Sequence record: ON548431.1
Length of the DNA stretch: 44,379 bases
From: Escherichia phage PEC9
Strand: one strand, 5' to 3'
How positions within the stretch are numbered: the first letter of the stretch is position 1; every line of letters starts with the position of its first letter. Positions 4,935 through 12,561 of the stretch are shown piece by piece. The translations under genes and the position numbers were made by a program. The notes under the pieces were generated by a model that had not been told where the DNA came from, searched no databases, and saw only the letters and a program-made list of their open reading frames with translations.

Positions 4935-6319
4935 TGCGTAACTATGCGGCAGAACACCGCGCCCTTGAACGAGCGATCGCAAAGCGAAACAGACCGCCGC
5001 GCCCGACACGCGTTGCGCAGGCCGTCCGCCTTTACCGGCCAGATTGCTTGCCGCACCAGGTTGAACTACTGCGCGACACGAAGACTAAAATCCTCGGCCT
5101 GTGTTCCGGCTTCGGCGGTGGAAAGTCGTGGGTCGCTGCGCGTAAGGTCATCCAGCTTTTAACCCTGAACCCCGGTCATGACGGCATCGTTACAGAACCG
5201 ACTATTCCCCTTCTGGTTAAAATCATGTACCCGGAATTGGAAAAGGCGTTTGATGAGGCTGGATTCCGGTGGAAGTTCAATAAGCAGGACAAGATCTATA
5301 ACGTGCTGGTGAAAGGGAAATGGACCCGCGTTATCTGTGAATCAATGGAAAACTATACCCGCCTGATCGGGGTCAACGCCGCGTGGATTGTTGCCGATGA
5401 ATTCGACACTACGAAGCAAGACGTCGCGCTGGCGGCATATCACAAACTGCTCGGTCGTCTGCGTGCGGGCTTCGTCCGCCAGTTCGTCATCGTGTCAACG
5501 CCTGAAGGCTACCGGGCGATGTACCAAATTTTCGAGGTGGAGAAAGACAACCAGAAACGCTTGATCCGGGCGAAGACCACGGACAACCACCATTTACCGG
5601 CAGACTTTATCGACACGCTGCGTAGTCAGTACCCAGCTAACCTGATCGACGCGTACTTGAACGGCCTGTTTGTTAACCTTACGTCGGGCGCGGTATACAA
5701 GATGTTTAACCGTGAGGAGAACGCAAGCACCGAAGAAGTGCAGCCGGAAGACACGCTGATTATCGGTATGGACTTTAACGTCACGAAGATGGCGGCGGTT
5801 GTGTACGTCAGACGGCAGCGAGTCACCGAGAACAAGGAGTTCCGCGACGAGATTCACGCGGTGGGCGAATTTGTGGACCTATTTGATACCCCGGCTATGA
5901 TTGAGGCGATCGAGGAGCGCTACCCCGATCATTGTGCTGCCGGTCGTGTTGTCGTTTACCCGGATAGCAGCGGCAAATCACGCAAGACGGTCAACGCGTC
6001 GTCGTCCGATATCGCGCAACTGGAAGACGCAGGCTTTGATGTGGAGTATGACAGCGTTAACCCGCCTGTTAAAGACCGATTGATCGCGATGAATACGATG
6101 ATGTGCAACTCGAAGGGCGTGCGCCAGTATTTTGTCAACCTGGATAAATGCCCTACACTAGCGAAATGTCTGGAACAGCAGGTGTACGACCTGAAGAAAG
6201 GCGAACCGGATAAAACTGCCGGTGTGGACCACATGAATGACGCGGCGGGCTACCCTATTGCGCACTTGTTCCCTGTGATTCGTCCGATCGCCGTTGTTCC
6301 AGCCGTAGACTTCTACTAA
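4934..6319 (+). CDS. Terminase large subunit
   Basis: 461 aa; Walker A-like GFGGGKS near N-terminus; position before portal. Confidence 0.8.
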   Translation: MRNYAAEHRALERAIAKRNRPPRPTRVAQAVRLYRPDCLPHQVELLRDTKTKILGLCSGFGGGKSWVAARKVIQLLTLNPGHDGIVTEPTIPLLVKIMYPELEKAFDEAGFRWKFNKQDKIYNVLVKGKWTRVICESMENYTRLIGVNAAWIVADEFDTTKQDVALAAYHKLLGRLRAGFVRQFVIVSTPEGYRAMYQIFEVEKDNQKRLIRAKTTDNHHLPADFIDTLRSQYPANLIDAYLNGLFVNLTSGAVYKMFNREENASTEEVQPEDTLIIGMDFNVTKMAAVVYVRRQRVTENKEFRDEIHAVGEFVDLFDTPAMIEAIEERYPDHCAAGRVVVYPDSSGKSRKTVNASSSDIAQLEDAGFDVEYDSVNPPVKDRLIAMNTMMCNSKGVRQYFVNLDKCPTLAKCLEQQVYDLKKGEPDKTAGVDHMNDAAGYPIAHLFPVIRPIAVVPAVDFY

Positions 6320-6330
6320 GGAAACCGACC

Positions 6331-7851
6331 ATGACCGTTAACGTTGACAACCAGCACCCGCTCTATGCGCGCATCGCGCCAGAGTGGAAAATGATTCGCG
6401 ATTGTGTAGCAGGGGAGCGCGCCGTGAAGGCGTGCGGACCATTGTACCTGCCACACCCAGCCAGCGGCGACACCACCGACCCGAAATCGCGTGCGCGCTA
6501 TAAGGCATATAAGCAACGCGCTGTCTTCCTGAATGCCACCGCCCGAACCCTTAACGCGCTGTTAGGCGTAGCCTTCGCCAAACCGGTGAGTATGGACCTT
6601 TCCGGGGCAATGGCGGACCTGATTGATGACGTAGACGGCAGCGGGATGCCCCTGGCGCAACTCCTGCGCGGCGCTATGTCGGAAGTGCTGCAATCGGGCC
6701 GTGCTGGCTTTATGGTGGACTACGACCGCCAGGCTAACTTTGATGAACTGGGTAACGTAGTGCCGCAGACAGCCGCTGAAATGGCGACACACCGCCCGCT
6801 TATCCGCCTGTATACGGCAGAGCAGATCATCAACTGGCGGCAGACCCACGGTGTCGACACGCTAATCGTGCTGAAGGAAACGGACGAAATCAGCACCGAA
6901 GACCCGGACGACTTCGCAAACCACGAGGTAACCATCTGGACCGAGCTTCGCATGATTGACGGCAAGGCACATGGTCGACGCTGGTTTTACAACGCGGACA
7001 CGTCAGACGTGCAGATGGACTTGCCGCGCGGCTTCACCCGCACCGACTTAGTGCCGCTGGTGGATGCCTCCGGTAATGCGCTTACTCAACTGCCATTTTG
7101 CTGGTGTGGTGCTGTGGACAACAACGCGACGCCGGACGCCGCACCGCTGGCGGATATTGCATCCATCAACATTAAGCACTACAACGCCGAAGCAGACGTC
7201 GCCGAGATTGCGCACATTGTGGGCCAACCTACACTCATTGCGACCGGTCTGACCCAATCATGGGCCGATAAAAACCTGAAGGGCGGCATCGCACTGGGCG
7301 CGACTAAGGGCGTTATCCTGGGGCAGAACATGGACGCTAAACTTCTTCAGGCGGAGGAGCGCAACTTGTCTGTTGCCCTGTGTGAGCGTCGAGAATTGCA
7401 AATGGCTAAACTGGGCGCTGCCCTGGTTGAGAAAGGGACTGCACCTAAGACGGCAACCGAAGCGGCCTACGATGCGCAGACCGATAACAGTATCCTGTCG
7501 CTTATTGCCGGTAATGTCGAGAAGGCTTTCAACCGTGCGCTGCAAATTGTCCAGCTATTCACTGGCGACACCGCCGACCAGCGCGTAACGCTGAACAAGT
7601 TCTACACTGAAATCACGGTTGATGCGCAGCTTATGACCGCGATGATGGCAGGTGTGCAGACCGGTACTGTCCGACTGGCGGATTTCATCAAGTGGATGAT
7701 GGCCCAGGGCGTTATCGATGACTCGCAAACCGTTGAGCAGGTGGAAGACGAATTGCGAAATCAGAATCCATTGCCTCAAATGTCCCCGGATGCGGTAGAA
7801 TCTGCCGAAGAAGACCCGGACAAGGTAGCGGACAATGGCGAAGACAATTAA
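6331..7851 (+). CDS. Portal protein
   Basis: 506 aa directly after terminase large subunit, RBS AAGGAAA, acidic C-terminus; call by size and order. Confidence 0.7.
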   Translation: MTVNVDNQHPLYARIAPEWKMIRDCVAGERAVKACGPLYLPHPASGDTTDPKSRARYKAYKQRAVFLNATARTLNALLGVAFAKPVSMDLSGAMADLIDDVDGSGMPLAQLLRGAMSEVLQSGRAGFMVDYDRQANFDELGNVVPQTAAEMATHRPLIRLYTAEQIINWRQTHGVDTLIVLKETDEISTEDPDDFANHEVTIWTELRMIDGKAHGRRWFYNADTSDVQMDLPRGFTRTDLVPLVDASGNALTQLPFCWCGAVDNNATPDAAPLADIASINIKHYNAEADVAEIAHIVGQPTLIATGLTQSWADKNLKGGIALGATKGVILGQNMDAKLLQAEERNLSVALCERRELQMAKLGAALVEKGTAPKTATEAAYDAQTDNSILSLIAGNVEKAFNRALQIVQLFTGDTADQRVTLNKFYTEITVDAQLMTAMMAGVQTGTVRLADFIKWMMAQGVIDDSQTVEQVEDELRNQNPLPQMSPDAVESAEEDPDKVADNGEDN

Positions 7852-8938
7852 TCAATATATGGCGGATCGAATGATTCGCCGACACATTTTCACCCAGCGC
7901 CTGAGTAATGACCAGGCGCGAAGGGTGCTGTCCATGTGGGAGAAGTTCCGGCCTACATTACTGGGGAAGCTGACCGAGTTGCTTGATGGCAAATCGTCAA
8001 TGAATAACCGGGCACTTTCCACGCTGTTAACGCAACTCGACAAGACCGTTAAAGCAGAATTGCGCACCGAGTTTAAGGTGTTGGCTGAAAGCCTTCAGGA
8101 GTTTGCCGACACGGAGGCTGATTATCTCGCCGACACATTAACGGCAGCGATCCAGCCGGTGGTCGCCGTACCTGCGGTCGAGGTGGTTGGCGTAGTGACC
8201 GGTGCGCAGATCGCAGCGACGGCTATGAAAAACCCGTTCCAGGGAAATACCATGATGCAATGGCCTGATTCATTGTCTGAGTGGACCAGGACGCAGATCG
8301 GGAATCAGGTGCGCGCTGGATTCATCCAGGGCAAGCCAACTATGGAAATTATAGCGGACGTGAGGCGCGCGCTCGGCGGTCGTAGTGCGCAAGCCATCTC
8401 GAGCGTTGTTAAGTCCGCAGTCAACCACTATGCGGCGACAGCCCGCGAACTAATGGTAAAAGCAAATGACGATATTCTCGAAGGTCGCCAATGGTTATCT
8501 ACATTGGACACGCATACTTCTCCCATGTGCCAGCTACGCGATCGCCTGTTTTATCCGGTTGATGTTACTCCCGACACCAAAGGAAAGCGCGGCGGGAAAG
8601 TGGTGGCTGGGTCACAATATGGCGCTGGTCCGGGCAAGTTGCATTATTGTTGCCGGTCGACGGAGACGTGGAAGGTTAAAGGCATGGAAGATTGGCCCAG
8701 TGGTAAGCGTCCGGCCCTGAAGGCTGATGCGGGTCGATTGCTGAGTGAGCAGGTCGACGCGCAGACTGATTTCTTCTCATGGGTGCAGCGCCAGCCGCGC
8801 CATATCCTGGAAGAATTATACGGAGTGCAACGCGCCGACCAGATTATGCGCGGCGTGAAAGTGCCGAAGATGTTCACCGATTCAGGCGAACTAATGACTA
8901 TCGCACAGCTTAAAAACCGGGGGTTATGGCGTGATTAA
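7835..8938 (+). CDS. Head morphogenesis (minor head) protein
   Basis: 367 aa directly after portal with overlapping start; Cys-rich C-terminal region; call by order. Confidence 0.55.
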   Translation: MAKTINQYMADRMIRRHIFTQRLSNDQARRVLSMWEKFRPTLLGKLTELLDGKSSMNNRALSTLLTQLDKTVKAELRTEFKVLAESLQEFADTEADYLADTLTAAIQPVVAVPAVEVVGVVTGAQIAATAMKNPFQGNTMMQWPDSLSEWTRTQIGNQVRAGFIQGKPTMEIIADVRRALGGRSAQAISSVVKSAVNHYAATARELMVKANDDILEGRQWLSTLDTHTSPMCQLRDRLFYPVDVTPDTKGKRGGKVVAGSQYGAGPGKLHYCCRSTETWKVKGMEDWPSGKRPALKADAGRLLSEQVDAQTDFFSWVQRQPRHILEELYGVQRADQIMRGVKVPKMFTDSGELMTIAQLKNRGLWRD

Positions 8939-9260
8939 ATATGCAGCGATTGGACTGATTATCGGTCTGGCGGTAGGATTCTGGCTAGGTGACTCCTATC
9001 GTGCTGGCGTAGTGGCGGAGGCGGCGCAAGAAGCGCAAGCCCAAGCCCAACGGCAGCAAACTAAAGTCGTTGAGCGCTCCGTGCAGGCCGAACAAGCCCG
9101 CGACGTAGAATACCGGACTATCACGAAAGAGGTTGTTAAATATGTTACGCGCCCTAACCGCCCTGATTGTAGTTTTGATGTTGAGCGCGTGCGGATCAAG
9201 CAACGTGCCGTTGATGCCGCTAACGGAGTCGGCACTGCGACCGCCGTGCAAGTTCGATAG
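8931..9260 (+). CDS. Putative i-spanin (Rz-like)
   Basis: GTG start overlapping previous stop; N-terminal transmembrane helix AAIGLIIGLAVGFWLG; Gln/Ala-rich coiled-coil-like region; o-spanin ORF begins inside it in another frame. Confidence 0.5.
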   Translation: MIKYAAIGLIIGLAVGFWLGDSYRAGVVAEAAQEAQAQAQRQQTKVVERSVQAEQARDVEYRTITKEVVKYVTRPNRPDCSFDVERVRIKQRAVDAANGVGTATAVQVR

Positions 9261-9372
9261 CCCGTCCGCAGACCCCGACGAGGATTTGATGATTGACGTG
9301 AAAAATATGGAATGCGGGGCGAAGCTAAGGGCGCAGGTGCTGGAGTTGCAGCAAATAATTAAGGGGCCGTAA
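9142..9372 (+). CDS. Putative o-spanin (Rz1-like outer-membrane lipoprotein)
   Basis: Signal peptide with lipobox LMLSAC; Pro-rich mature part; overlapped arrangement with upstream gene; ATG 9142 chosen (ORF track starts at TTG 9133). Confidence 0.55.
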   Translation: MLRALTALIVVLMLSACGSSNVPLMPLTESALRPPCKFDSPSADPDEDLMIDVKNMECGAKLRAQVLELQQIIKGP

Positions 9373-9384
9373 TGGCCCCTTTTT
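9362..9384. terminator. Bidirectional rho-independent terminator between convergent genes
   Basis: AGGGGCC-GTAAT-GGCCCCT hairpin followed by TTTTT on plus strand; minus-strand gene ends at 9387. Confidence 0.5.
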
Positions 9385-9386
9385 CG

Positions 9387-10151
9387 TTAGCGCGGAATGC
9401 CGCAAATCTCGTTGAGTGTTTTCACATCCAGCGCCACCGCCGTGGATTTTGGCTTGTCCGGGTATGGGATGAATTGCTCAACTTCAGGCCATGCCTTAAT
9501 CAGCTTCTTGTCAGTATTGTGCAGGTCCAGTACACCGGTAACGGTGAGTTTGAACGCATCATACTTCGCGCGCAACTCGCGACGGGCCTTGTCGTTGCGG
9601 TCCAGGCGCTTACAGAAATCATGATCCGCCGGGAAATCTGCACGGCAGCGTGGCTTATAGATCGGCAGCGCTTTCCCGTCCTCGTCCACTTCACACACTG
9701 AAGCCAGCATAACTTCTTCAAACCCCGGTACGATATCGCCGAGATCGGGAGATAGCTTATTCATGTATTTATATTCCCAGTATCCGCGATGTACGCGGTA
9801 TTGGTGGCCGTCACCGCTCAAGGATAAGGTGCGAACATTTCCGCCTGCGTTGATTTCGAAAGTGGCGTCGTAAACGCTGCCGATACCTTTCGGGCGGTCG
9901 GTGTTATAACTATATGTCGCCTTGTTGGTGTAGACGCAGACGCCGTACATCTGCGACGGGTCATCGCTGATTGCCTCGATACGCTCGCGTAGCGCGGAGA
10001 ATGTGCGAATGCCGTCCGGCATACAGTCCAGCGTGATTGCGTACGCCAGATCGCGTGAGTCCATCATGATTGTTTTGGCTTCGGTAGCGATTTCGTGGTC
10101 GCGCAGGATGTTAGCCAGGATCTGATTTTTAATATCTTTCGTCAGTCTCAT
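9387..10151 (-). CDS. Hypothetical protein (254 aa), accessory gene inside virion module
   Basis: Minus-strand ORF with GAGGA RBS; C-terminal Cys-x16-Cys-x7-His-x2-Cys cluster suggests a zinc-binding domain; no family recognised. Confidence 0.55.
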   Translation of the reverse strand: MRLTKDIKNQILANILRDHEIATEAKTIMMDSRDLAYAITLDCMPDGIRTFSALRERIEAISDDPSQMYGVCVYTNKATYSYNTDRPKGIGSVYDATFEINAGGNVRTLSLSGDGHQYRVHRGYWEYKYMNKLSPDLGDIVPGFEEVMLASVCEVDEDGKALPIYKPRCRADFPADHDFCKRLDRNDKARRELRAKYDAFKLTVTGVLDLHNTDKKLIKAWPEVEQFIPYPDKPKSTAVALDVKTLNEICGIPR

Positions 10152-10189
10152 TTTTGTGTCCTCATGTTGGGGCTTTCGCCCCGTTTGGT

Positions 10190-10504
10190 TTAGTTAAATT
10201 TGATGTTGCCACCGGTGGAAGTTAAGCGGGCACATACAGCTTCAACGGCATCAACGCACATGAAATCGTTAAAGGCTTCGACCAGGGCGTTTATGAAAGA
10301 TGCCGGAACCAGGCCGCAAGCCGGATTATCGAATGCCGCGGAGTTGATCGCCGCTTTTGCCGCTTCAGAAGCATTCATGCTCTGGCACAGATTCAGCGCT
10401 TCCGCGTTACGCATTGCGTGAAAGGTAAAGGTATTCGCTACGGTAGCTTTATTGAAACGGGCCATTGCGGCGTCTACTGGAGTTGCTACGGTCATGTTAG
10501 TCAT
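10190..10504 (-). CDS. Hypothetical protein (104 aa), accessory gene inside virion module
   Basis: Internal ATG at 10504 with AAGGAAG RBS chosen within ORF 10190-10558; Ala-rich, no motif recognised. Confidence 0.45.
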   Translation of the reverse strand: MTNMTVATPVDAAMARFNKATVANTFTFHAMRNAEALNLCQSMNASEAAKAAINSAAFDNPACGLVPASFINALVEAFNDFMCVDAVEAVCARLTSTGGNIKFN

Positions 10505-10532
10505 TTTGTCTTCCTTCATATCTCTGTTGGTG

Positions 10533-10556
10533 TGCAACCAATATACTGCAACCAAC
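10533..10556. promoter_or_regulatory. Two direct copies of TGCAACCAAT / TGCAACCAAC in a divergent intergenic region
   Basis: Read at 10533-10542 and 10547-10556, between minus-strand start 10504 and plus-strand start 10659. Confidence 0.45.
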
Positions 10557-10576
10557 ATTCACAATGCAAGCGAATT

Positions 10577-10604
10577 TTGCGATTATTTTTATCGCTGATA
10601 ATAT
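10577..10604 (+). promoter_or_regulatory. Candidate sigma70-like promoter for scaffold/capsid genes
   Basis: TTGCGA, 16-bp spacer, TAATAT; about 55 bp upstream of ATG 10659; weak match. Confidence 0.25.
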
Positions 10605-10658
10605 TAAGGCGTGAAGTCAAGCGGGTGGCCCGCTTTGCCACAATCCCAGGGGGATAGC

Positions 10659-11363
10659 ATGAAACTTACTAAAGCAGAATATGACGCGTTGCCCGAGGGC
10701 ATGAAGGCTTTATTTGTTGCCGATGGTGATGGGTATAAATCCACGTTCATGACCGCCGAAGAAGTACAGGCGGAGATCAAGGGTCTGAAAGACAACAACG
10801 CGAAGCTGGTTAGCGAGAAGAAAGCAGAAGCCGAACGTCGCGCCGAAGCCGAGCGCCTTGCGAAAGAGAAAGAGGAAGCCGCCGCGCGCAAAAATGGCGA
10901 CCTCGAAGCGATCGATAAGTCCTGGAAAGATAAGTTCGCAAAACATGAAGCGGACACATCTGGGAAGATCGAAGCCTACCGCAAGCAGATCCACGACCTA
11001 ACCATCGGCAGCGCTGCCAAAGATTTGGCCTCGAAGCTGTTCGGTAAGAATGCAGGCATCATGCAACGCCACGTTATGGACCGCCTCACGCTGGAAGACG
11101 GCGAAGACGGCAGCCTGAAGGTGCGGGTGTTGAAGGACGGCAAACCATCCGCGCTGACTATGGAAGAACTGGAGAAAGAATTCCGTAGTAACGCCGATTT
11201 TGCATCCGTCCTGGCTGGCACGCCAGCCGGTGGTGCGCCGAGCAAACCGACGCAGGTCGTAGAAGATGTGAAGTCGAAAATCACTATGGGCCACAGCTTC
11301 GGTATCGCTGACTTGACGAAACAGGCAGGGGATATCATCGCTAAAATGGGCGACGACGAGTAA
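10659..11363 (+). CDS. Head scaffolding protein
   Basis: 234 aa, highly charged and helical (KKAEAERRAEAERLAKEKEEAAAR), directly upstream of major capsid gene; ATG 10659 with AGGGGGA RBS. Confidence 0.55.
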   Translation: MKLTKAEYDALPEGMKALFVADGDGYKSTFMTAEEVQAEIKGLKDNNAKLVSEKKAEAERRAEAERLAKEKEEAAARKNGDLEAIDKSWKDKFAKHEADTSGKIEAYRKQIHDLTIGSAAKDLASKLFGKNAGIMQRHVMDRLTLEDGEDGSLKVRVLKDGKPSALTMEELEKEFRSNADFASVLAGTPAGGAPSKPTQVVEDVKSKITMGHSFGIADLTKQAGDIIAKMGDDE

Positions 11364-11367
11364 GCAG

Positions 11368-11393
11368 ATCGCCCGCGAAAGCGGGCGATTTTG
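11368..11393 (+). terminator. Rho-independent terminator after scaffold gene
   Basis: ATCGCCCGC-GAAA-GCGGGCGAT hairpin followed by TTTG. Confidence 0.5.
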
Positions 11394-11460
11394 CGAGCGC
11401 GTAAATCTAAGGTAACATTAACGACACTGAGCGAATGCTCATAACTCAAAGGATTCTAAT

Positions 11461-12561
11461 ATGTCTTTAACAGTGTTCCAGCGTAAACTCGTCACCGCGG
11501 TTACGCAAATGATTCCCGATAACCTGAACGTGTTCAACGCTGCCGCTAACGGCGCTGTTGTTCTCGGCACGGGTGAAGTGCTGAAGGACGTTGTAGAAAA
11601 AATGTCCGTAGGCTTGATCGCCAACCTCGTTACCGACCGTAACGCCTACGCCCCTGTCGGTACTCCGGCGACCGCAAAAGTGCTGGCGCGTATGCTGACC
11701 AACTCGGTTAACCTTTCCGCGAAAGTTGGTCCGGTAGCAATCACTAAGGCCATGATGGCTAAGATCGAAACCAACGTTAACAGCGTTGCGGCTGAGATTG
11801 CGGCGCAGGCTACCCAAGCGATTATGCTGCACTACCTGAAAGCGGGTATCGGCGCAAGTAAAGCGGCTATTGAAAGCAACGCAGCGGCAAAATACACCCA
11901 ACCGGCGCGCGTTGACGGCGTGGGTGGTCGTACCTTCCCGACCCTGGCAGACTTTCCGCTGGCGGCTTCCAAGTTCGGCGATCAGGCGTCTTTGATTAAA
12001 TCCTGGTTTATGGACGGCGTTACCTGGGCGAATTTCATTGCATACCAGGCGCTCCCATCTGCCGAGCAGGTATTCGCGATCGGCGATCTGCAGGTAATGG
12101 GCGATGGCCTGGGCCGCCGTTTCATTATCTCCGATGCCGCTGCCGATGCAATGGGCGCGGGTAAAATGCTGGGCCTGGTGCCTGGCGCGGTTGCAGTTAC
12201 CACCAACGGCCTCGATATGCTGGCGCAAGAAAAAGGCGGTAACGAGAACATTGAACGCTGGTGGCAGGGCGAGTTCGACTTCAACGTGGCTGTTAAAGGC
12301 TATCGTCTGAAGGCGTCCGCTCGTACTCCGATCGAAGGTGTTCGCTCGTTCAAACTGGACGATATTACCACTTCCGCTAACTGGGAACTGGATCAGGGCC
12401 AGGTAGACAACGCACCGGCAACCGTTCAGGATGTTGGCGCTGTTGGTGACGGCGATACTAAAGGCCGTCGTAAGACCCAGGCCGCACAGGCAGTGCCGAC
12501 CCGTCACATCAAGGAAACGGCGGGCGTACTGGTTACGCTGACTGCGACCACAGCGTCCTAA
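11461..12561 (+). CDS. Major capsid protein
   Basis: 366 aa, AAGGA RBS, follows scaffold and is followed by a strong terminator; call by order and composition. Confidence 0.7.
   Translation: MSLTVFQRKLVTAVTQMIPDNLNVFNAAANGAVVLGTGEVLKDVVEKMSVGLIANLVTDRNAYAPVGTPATAKVLARMLTNSVNLSAKVGPVAITKAMMAKIETNVNSVAAEIAAQATQAIMLHYLKAGIGASKAAIESNAAAKYTQPARVDGVGGRTFPTLADFPLAASKFGDQASLIKSWFMDGVTWANFIAYQALPSAEQVFAIGDLQVMGDGLGRRFIISDAAADAMGAGKMLGLVPGAVAVTTNGLDMLAQEKGGNENIERWWQGEFDFNVAVKGYRLKASARTPIEGVRSFKLDDITTSANWELDQGQVDNAPATVQDVGAVGDGDTKGRRKTQAAQAVPTRHIKETAGVLVTLTATTAS

Follow-up and report, generated by a model that had tools for sequence, protein, structure and literature searches.

The DNA of the Dhillonvirus Escherichia phage PEC9 analysed here (sequence record ON548431.1; 44,379 nucleotides, referred to below as the window) carries a two-gene operon on the strand opposite to its head genes. 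On balance, we favour the view that this is a real, non-essential accessory operon of two independent genes, whose larger product, Nmad5, operates at replication or recombination and is neither a virion component nor a base-hypermodifier. By orthology, the larger gene is the already published nmad5, the Dhillonvirus gene in which mutations give escape from Tmn. As nmad5 has been named and studied experimentally, the finding is largely known, and the operon represents no new kind of system. What our analysis adds is that the position ahead of nmad5 is hot-swappable, that the 104-aa gene occupying it in PEC9 is mobile, and that the label 'DNA-modification enzyme' is, on comparative evidence, unsupported for Nmad5 in Dhillonvirus.

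Two genes lie antisense within the head module

In the window, the genes encoding the portal (6331-7851), a MuF-type head morphogenesis protein (7835-8938), the i-spanin (8931-9260) and the o-spanin (9133-9372) precede two minus-strand genes, beyond which lie the scaffold gene (10659-11363, starting with ATG) and the gene for the major capsid protein (11461-12561). The minus-strand genes are nmad5 (254 aa; 9387-10151) and a small gene of 104 aa (10190-10504), the first gene of the operon. Both are antisense to both flanks, with the spanins on one side and the scaffold gene on the other, which is where the first-pass annotation had placed two antisense ORFs. The good ribosome-binding sites it had described are also present: GAGGA is located 7 nt 5' of the nmad5 ATG, and AGGAAG 5 nt 5' of the small gene's start at 10504. 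The longest possible ORF for the small gene reaches 10558, an extension that is probably an artefact of the leader. We accepted the 104-aa start because of its AGGAAG site, because homologues use the same start, and because the annotation of Dhillonvirus SM_A8 agrees. From 8900 to 11400, the sequence matches Escherichia phage PEC14 at 100% identity and many Dhillonvirus genomes at 93-97%.

Both genes are under purifying selection. Pairwise dN/dS among the Dhillonvirus orthologues was 0.12 for nmad5 and 0.10 for the 104-aa gene, compared with 0.07 for the major capsid protein, 0.05 for MuF and 0.04 for the scaffold. Therefore, both ORFs are genuine genes, and the possibility raised in the first-pass annotation, that they lack coding signal in comparative analysis, can be set aside.

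A conserved control region and a shared terminator delimit the operon

The operon and the convergent spanin operon have a bidirectional intrinsic-terminator-like hairpin in common (9361-9381, both strands). It has a stem of 8-9 bp with 6 GC pairs, and its folding energy lies between -17 and -19 kcal/mol on both strands (-18.6 on the plus strand, -17.1 on the minus strand); the T-run is good on the plus strand and weak on the minus strand. Terminators are annotated on both strands at the homologous place in HK578. Between the two genes lies a second hairpin, GGGGC-GAAA-GCCCC (10169-10182, minus strand; -11.5 kcal/mol, z=-3.2); on the mRNA strand it has a 5-bp GC stem capped by a GAAA tetraloop, and no U-tail follows it. 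This hairpin travels with the small gene, being present in JL1 and absent in SM_S22, and it belongs to the 3' end of the small-gene module.

Upstream of the small gene, a 5' leader containing the AGGAAG site (10505-10532, minus strand) is kept whichever gene comes next, and the region from 10527 to 10660 is conserved in PEC9, SM_S22, HK578 and JL1 regardless of the identity of the first minus-strand gene. This region includes a candidate sigma-70 promoter on the minus strand (10540-10569), in which TTGCAT (10569-10564) is separated by 18 nt from TATATT (10545-10540). The candidate scores 8 of 12, below the threshold of our scan, and was read directly from the sequence; we consider it a plausible but weak promoter for the accessory operon. 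Its putative -10 element is flanked by a pair of exact 9-mers, TGCAACCAA, at 10533 and 10547 on the plus strand (10533-10555). There are 10 exact copies of TGCAACCAA in the window, against about 0.34 expected, and 9 of the 10 are intergenic. The pair is conserved in relatives, except that JL1 has only one copy. Here it points towards the scaffold gene; elsewhere its orientation is not consistently that of the neighbouring genes. Both hairpins and the recurrent motif pair listed in the first-pass annotation are real features of the locus. Rather than an operon-specific signal, TGCAACCAA is best seen as a candidate site at which a regulator binds the divergent control region.

The larger gene is the orthologue of a Tmn-escape gene

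The first-pass annotation had recognised no family for either protein. Both can be assigned: the 104-aa protein matched phrog_24635, while the 254-aa protein belongs to phrog_1965 and matched the Pfam family Nmad5 (PF18757) with E=8.6e-59 and 199.5 bits, where the gathering cut-off is 27 bits. This match is full length, covering profile positions 1-206 of 206 and protein residues 1-253, and PF18757 was also matched by all 29 aligned relatives of the protein.

The same gene was studied by Yamashita et al. (Commun Biol 2025; PMC11846954) in the Dhillonviruses SM_A8 and SM_S22, and described by them as 'located near the capsid gene'. Phages escaping Tmn carried nmad5 mutations, K216E in SM_A8 and K296E in SM_S22; reverting the K-to-E change restored Tmn sensitivity, and introducing it conferred resistance (PMC11846954). 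Deletion of nmad5 gave a viable phage that did not gain Tmn escape, attempts to clone the gene were unsuccessful, with toxicity as the apparent cause, and the anti-Tmn gene of SM_S22, ORF35, is a separate gene located elsewhere in the genome (PMC11846954). The SM_S22 nmad5 (CDS0006) is annotated 80 codons too long, overlapping the scaffold gene, which explains why the residue is numbered 296 in SM_S22 and 216 in SM_A8.

The PEC9 protein is 89% identical in amino acid sequence to the SM_A8 Nmad5, with no gaps. Lys216, the residue changed to Glu in the SM_A8 escapers, is encoded in PEC9 by the AAG codon at 9504-9506 (minus strand) and lies, as in SM_A8, within the motif NTDKKLIKAWPE. Orthology, synteny and the lysine at position 216 all identify the PEC9 locus, at the level of sequence, with the Tmn-escape locus of these phages.

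The first operon position is a variable slot

To place the operon in the genus, we used the approximately 159 records in which the capsid gene is shared at an identity of at least 80%. Behind one conserved leader, the first position of the operon takes five states across Dhillonvirus, and the slot varies in length from about 690 to about 1580 nt. In SM_S22 the 104-aa gene and its hairpin are precisely absent, and the nmad5 start abuts the conserved control region. The slot of EP23 holds a gene for a 172-aa beta-clamp-like protein (phrog_3007; weak DNA_pol3_beta_2 match), that of L023 a 135-aa gene resembling HK578 gp06, and that of L020 a 53-aa ORF; in EP23, L017, L020 and L023 alike, the alternative slot gene is preceded by this leader and its ribosome-binding site. 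Conserved flanks and a conserved control region thus enclose alternative cargo in close relatives, as in a moron-like slot.

The two genes are not an obligate pair. Full-length Nmad5 is encoded by approximately 146-149 of the approximately 159 records and the small gene by only about 60. SM_S22, EP23 and others carry nmad5 without the small gene, while JL1 has the small gene next to a 74-aa remnant of nmad5, and HK578 has no nmad5 at all. Thus, nmad5 and the 104-aa gene assort independently, and the two-gene functional cassette proposed in the first-pass annotation does not hold.

The accessory nature of the insertion, which the same annotation had suggested, is well founded. In Edwardsiella phage eiAU, from the sister genus Eiauvirus, the head genes are recognisably related, and the scaffold gene directly follows MuF, with neither spanins nor antisense genes between them. 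Together with the exceptions in HK578 and JL1, the patchy presence of the small gene and the viability of the nmad5 deletion (PMC11846954), this shows that the two proteins are not virion components conserved in all relatives.

The 104-aa gene is narrowly distributed and mobile

The 104-aa family is small. An exhaustive HMMER profile search of 1.84 billion proteins found four representative clusters, one of which, a repetitive 2421-aa protein, is likely spurious. Besides the Dhillonvirus records, the gene occurs in 11 records of other lineages, with homologues of 57-74% identity in Ackermannviridae (Aglimvirinae), in the Pantoea phage genus Dibbivirus and in two contigs, one containing a primase gene and the other, of PurZ type, encoding an adenylosuccinate-synthetase homologue and an HD hydrolase. 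Outside Dhillonvirus it never adjoins Nmad5, and none of the upstream neighbours of distant Nmad5 genes is homologous to the 104-aa protein. In one non-Dhillonvirus lineage a consensus promoter, TTGACA-N17-TATAAT, lies 5' of the homologue, and a GC hairpin without a U-tail lies 3' of the gene in every lineage, including four besides Dhillonvirus. With its own hairpin in all lineages and a promoter in one, the 104-aa gene behaves as a mobile early-gene module.

The protein is predicted to be all-helical, and its AlphaFold model (pLDDT 48.5) is too poor to use. Four residues, H29, C63, C83 and C91, are invariant in the ten available sequences, which hints at a metal site. We also considered two known Dhillonvirus proteins as possible identities and rejected both. 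Ksap1, the trigger of KpAvs2, has 74 aa and is encoded elsewhere, between methyltransferase and phosphatase genes; anti-Tmn is the SM_S22 ORF35, likewise encoded elsewhere, in a phage that has no small gene.

Nmad5 evolves faster than its neighbours and occurs in other early contexts

Within the genus, Nmad5 shows 87-93% amino acid identity, whereas the scaffold, capsid and MuF proteins show 96-99%. The same is seen at greater distance: in L025 the two identities are 64% (Nmad5) and 90% (major capsid protein), and in L027 they are 38% and 84%. Nmad5 is therefore diverging faster than the products of its flanking genes.

In eiAU, the Nmad5 homologue (gp32; hmmsearch E=2e-31) is encoded after the helicase-primase, among small early genes. 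Elsewhere, Nmad5 is found in three contexts. One comprises replication modules with a DUF2800 nuclease, an Enc34-type SSB, PolA and an AAA_25 primase-helicase. Another comprises the pL operons of lambdoid or Rac-like phages, with cI or N on one side and RecT/YqaJ or Erf/SSB/exonuclease genes on the other; the Nmad5 of mEp235 gave the best Pfam match that we saw (E=3.7e-72). The last, and the only one in which base modification is involved, comprises the thymidine-hypermodification clusters of M6/SN1-like phages and of Yuavirus. In the annotated Dhillonvirus genomes HH3 and SM_S22, we found no hydroxymethylase, 5-hmdU DNA kinase, aGPT-Pplase or other hypermodification gene; the methyltransferases of these two genomes are of the Dam and Dcm types only and are encoded far from nmad5. 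Dhillonviruses are, moreover, comparatively sensitive to RM systems (PMC8594841).

These contexts suggest, through guilt by association, a role for Nmad5 in replication or recombination, and the lack of hypermodification genes in the two genomes and the RM sensitivity of the genus speak against an ordinary enzyme.

Conserved termini frame a poorly predicted middle in Nmad5

An alignment of 29 Nmad5 sequences reaching down to about 22% identity, which is shallow (Neff 3.3), showed that both termini are strikingly constant. Invariant or near-invariant residues are R2, L3, G103, G113, P167, A175, L208, T213, L217, W221, P222, P229, K233, A238, A240, L241, T245, L246, N247, C250, G251 and P253. 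The PEC9 protein carries the resulting signature, with MRLT at its N-terminus, T-x3-L-x3-WP, and A-x-A-L-x3-TLN-x2-CG-x-P at its C-terminus. No D, E or H is conserved across the 29 relatives; the invariant residues are hydrophobic or structural.

The AlphaFold model of Nmad5 (pLDDT 73.5, pTM 0.71) has a confident helical core formed by residues 5-62 and 178-227. K216 falls in a confidently modelled helix, inside the most conserved motif of the family, T213-x3-L217-x3-W221-P222. The beta-rich middle is poorly predicted, with pLDDT below 50 at residues 67-95 and 123-131. In principle, a catalytic domain could be hidden in this middle third of the model, and the nearly invariant C250 and K233 could be catalytic. 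A fold search with Nmad5 returned no solved structural relative and no enzyme-like fold. For Nmad5 and the 104-aa protein alike, there was no match in a PDB sequence-profile search, no significant match in NCBIfam, and no match to the PADLOC defence models at E values up to 1. A relationship of Nmad5 to the HMUDK helical domain was also considered and rejected (hhalign probability 1.3%).

The Cys/His cluster in which the larger protein had been said to end is located mid-protein, at C153, C169, H177 and C180 of 254 residues, and its spacing is C-x15-C-x7-H-x2-C, the first interval being x15 rather than x16. Most close Dhillonvirus relatives have Gly in place of C169, the relatives of 64-65% identity have Val in place of C153, and family members of about 230 aa lack the whole stretch. 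Since the ligands are not conserved across homologues, we rejected a zinc-finger reading.

Discussion

Our model suggests that transcription of the accessory operon starts in the divergent control region that precedes the scaffold gene, runs against the late head genes and ends at the terminator common to the spanin operon. The first position of the operon would be a slot prone to recombination, preceded by a promoter, leader and ribosome-binding site that are conserved. In PEC9 this slot holds the gene for a narrowly distributed helical protein of 104 aa; the gene brings its own 3' hairpin and, in unrelated phages, is found as an early gene standing alone. We hypothesize that host RNA polymerase transcribes the operon early, and that Nmad5 acts on phage DNA replication or recombination, or on a conserved partner, through the helical core formed by its conserved N- and C-terminal parts. 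The specific proposal that Nmad5 is an early non-structural protein at the replication/recombination interface, or acting on a conserved partner, is tentative, and we hold it with less assurance than the accessory operon as a whole.

What Nmad5 and the small protein do admits other explanations. It is possible, though we lean against it, that one or both genes encode counter-defence factors, in which case the operon would be an early locus directed against host defences, with an arms race selecting for exchange of its first gene. Several observations speak for it: cargo is swapped behind a conserved promoter, the small gene spreads horizontally through unrelated phages together with a promoter and a hairpin, Nmad5 evolves fast relative to its neighbours, nmad5 interacts genetically with Tmn (PMC11846954), and lambdoid Nmad5 is encoded in the accessory region of pL that also houses Ral- and Abc-type genes. 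However, no characterised anti-defence protein proved homologous to either protein, the gene known for anti-Tmn activity in Dhillonvirus is a different one, wild-type Nmad5 gives no protection from Tmn, and dN/dS of both genes is well below 1. We are somewhat more doubtful that Nmad5 is a DNA- or nucleotide-modifying enzyme and that Tmn senses an Nmad5-dependent modification of Dhillonvirus DNA, which is how Yamashita et al. read the Tmn escape (PMC11846954). The family owes its name to an association with modification genes, adjoining aGPT-Pplase1, kinase, rSAM and PLP genes in SN1/M6 and an HMUDK_hel protein and a dUMP hydroxymethylase in the Yuavirus Lydia. Against this, deletion of nmad5 does not relieve Tmn sensitivity (PMC11846954), the Dhillonvirus gene has spanin and scaffold genes for neighbours in genomes without hydroxymethylase, kinase or aGPT-Pplase genes, the canonical members of the family are encoded in lambdoid pL operons, in phages whose DNA is not known to be modified, and Dhillonviruses are relatively sensitive to RM systems (PMC8594841). 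Since no solved structure is related to Nmad5, its acidic and His residues are not conserved, and the family has other contexts elsewhere, the enzyme label is unsupported here, and Nmad5 in PEC9 is probably not a base-hypermodifying enzyme.

Two further readings are very improbable. In the first, a toxin-antitoxin-like or exclusion module, the small protein would control a toxic Nmad5; the genes are indeed adjacent and co-oriented, with the small gene first, and nmad5 cloned alone appeared toxic (PMC11846954). Nevertheless, about 60% of the nmad5-bearing Dhillonviruses lack the small gene, including SM_S22, the source of nmad5 in that cloning test; JL1 keeps the small gene beside a truncated nmad5; other phage families carry the small gene without Nmad5; and distant Nmad5 genes have unrelated upstream neighbours. 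The distribution of the genes has thus largely refuted this reading already. The idea that both are virion or head-assembly proteins whose genes happen to lie on the other strand is, if anything, less credible still. Its sole support is the location between MuF/spanins and the scaffold gene, whereas nmad5 is absent in HK578, truncated in JL1 and dispensable (PMC11846954), the homologous head module of eiAU lacks it, and in other phages the family is found in early, replication or recombination regions; Nmad5 is very probably not a virion component. The first-pass annotation had considered superinfection exclusion, anti-defence and toxin-like effectors as functions for such a unit. The accessory character stands, nmad5 was apparently toxic on cloning and a point mutant escapes Tmn (PMC11846954), but we found nothing to show that either protein is an effector of these kinds, strictly defined, and the nmad5 deletion leaves Tmn sensitivity unchanged.

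No proposed model, including the favoured one of an accessory operon with Nmad5 at replication or recombination, accounts for escape from Tmn by K216E and not by deletion. As a speculation, these genetics fit a changed interaction surface better than lost catalysis. Taken further, and we regard this as rather unlikely in its entirety, Nmad5 would be a widespread early protein of phages, with a fold of its own and no base-modifying activity, that uses its conserved C-terminal helical surface (T213..W221-P222, including K216) to contact a conserved replication/recombination or immune component; the Dhillonvirus slot would be a hot-swappable counter-defence position, and the Cys/His-bearing 104-aa protein a new, horizontally mobile counter-defence factor.

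With its wild-type K216 allele, PEC9 would be expected to share the behaviour of Tmn-sensitive Dhillonviruses, provided that it has no functional anti-Tmn gene. The published change of a single codon (AAG to GAG at 9506-9504) lends itself to engineering, and the results on the enzyme label and on the slot could guide experiments on the role of Nmad5 and on Tmn evasion by point mutants only.

The closest known systems are the loci of SM_A8 and SM_S22. Their nmad5 genes are orthologous to that of PEC9, the order from spanin terminator through nmad5 to scaffold gene is the same, and SM_A8 also has the 104-aa gene upstream of nmad5, while SM_S22 lacks it. There is no essential difference in nmad5 itself; the likeness of the PEC9 gene lies in its sequence and position. 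The M6/SN1-like phages and Yuavirus share with Dhillonvirus the Pfam family (E=2.4e-34 for the protein of phage Lydia), there as an early gene near the DNA polymerase gene. In those phages, dUMP hydroxymethylase, 5-hmdU DNA kinase, aGPT-Pplase, rSAM and PLP enzymes adjoin Nmad5, whereas Dhillonvirus has no such enzymes and carries nmad5 in the head module. Lambdoid and Rac-like temperate phages (mEp235, Stx phages) have the conserved Nmad5 termini and likewise encode the protein as a non-structural early accessory gene. However, their Nmad5 is shorter (207-222 aa), lacks an insertion of about 45 residues (approximately residues 125-150 plus the Cys/His stretch) and is encoded with the repressor or N on one side and genes for recombination (RecT/YqaJ or Erf/SSB/exo) on the other. 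Finally, the PEC9 unit resembles phage morons or hypervariable accessory slots, in which promoter-gene-terminator units are found between conserved modules, in having its own promoter region and terminator, in being opposed to the surrounding late operon, in being dispensable, and in its variable content among close relatives with conserved flanks. Classic morons have been described chiefly in temperate phages, where the prophage expresses them, whereas the PEC9 unit resides in a virulent siphovirus.

A Dhillonvirus-specific insertion in the head module

The Rz/Rz1-type spanin genes of PEC9 lie within the head module (8931-9372), far from the holin and endolysin genes, and the o-spanin carries an LSAC lipobox. 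In the Edwardsiella phage eiAU, of the sister genus Eiauvirus, a spanin is found inside the lysis cassette, and the MuF and scaffold genes adjoin each other. It follows from this comparison that the Dhillonvirus-specific insertion consists of the spanin genes plus the antisense operon.

The first-pass annotation had reported a recurrent motif pair upstream of the antisense genes. This was confirmed by two exact copies of the 9-mer TGCAACCAA, at 10533 and 10547. The whole window holds 10 exact copies, against ~0.34 expected, and the others are located at 41, 604, 26645, 29725, 29738, 31639, 31656 and 41200; all but one of the ten are intergenic. Copies with one mismatch occur at 72, 2915/2938, 38234/38250 and 44014/44049. 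The copies are often paired, 13-35 nt apart, with one pair inverted, and a -10-like TNTANN frequently follows directly. Their orientation does not always match the direction of the neighbouring gene. TGCAACCAA is a candidate element of some phage regulator, either an operator or a promoter.

Conservation and neighbourhood of Nmad5

Distant relatives of Nmad5 (9387-10151, minus strand) keep its first ~10 and last ~20 residues nearly identical (MRLTKDIK... and ...TAVALxxxTLNxxCGxP, respectively), at an overall identity of just 23-35%. This unusual conservation pattern points to an interaction surface formed by the termini.

An alignment also corrects the nmad5 start of SM_S22 (L009/L059, 5005-6009), one of the Dhillonviruses whose nmad5 K-to-E mutants escape Tmn defence. 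Its GenBank CDS of 334 aa runs ~200 nt into the scaffold gene; the true start is the same Met as in the window, giving 254 aa. With this start, the published K296E is K216E.

A protein of 323-369 aa recurs in 18 temperate-phage loci (within L035-L054); its gene lies downstream of Nmad5, at a distance of 2-4 genes, and directly ahead of RecT/YqaJ (for example, 6313-7422 in L042). It has no Pfam match in these loci, and is a conserved, uncharacterised companion of the recombination module.

The small protein, its replacement and its distant relatives

The conserved Cys/His set belongs to the 104-aa protein (10190-10504, minus strand), not to the larger one. All ten homologues keep H29, C63 (within DNPACGLVP), C83 (within FMCVD) and C91 unchanged, and this invariance suggests a possible metal site.

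A metagenomic protein of 87 aa (P0055) combines residues 1-48 of the 104-aa protein with a segment that has a Pfam Nmad5 match, apparently through a deletion that fused both genes in one metagenomic Dhillonvirus. In Shigella phage EP23, the small gene is replaced by a 172-aa single-domain beta-sliding-clamp-like gene (about 4404-4919 in L017), whose product matches phrog_3007 (E=2.6e-55) and, weakly and below the cut-off, DNA_pol3_beta_2 (E=7e-4). Sitting in an accessory slot, a clamp-like protein of this small size could serve as a decoy for the host replisome.

Finally, a 47-kb contig (L007; features at 344-2287 and 5001-5309) carries a small-gene homologue with 74% identity, and also codes for an adenylosuccinate-synthetase homologue and an HD-family hydrolase, a combination that appears reminiscent of the PurZ/DatZ 2-aminoadenine (Z-genome) phages.
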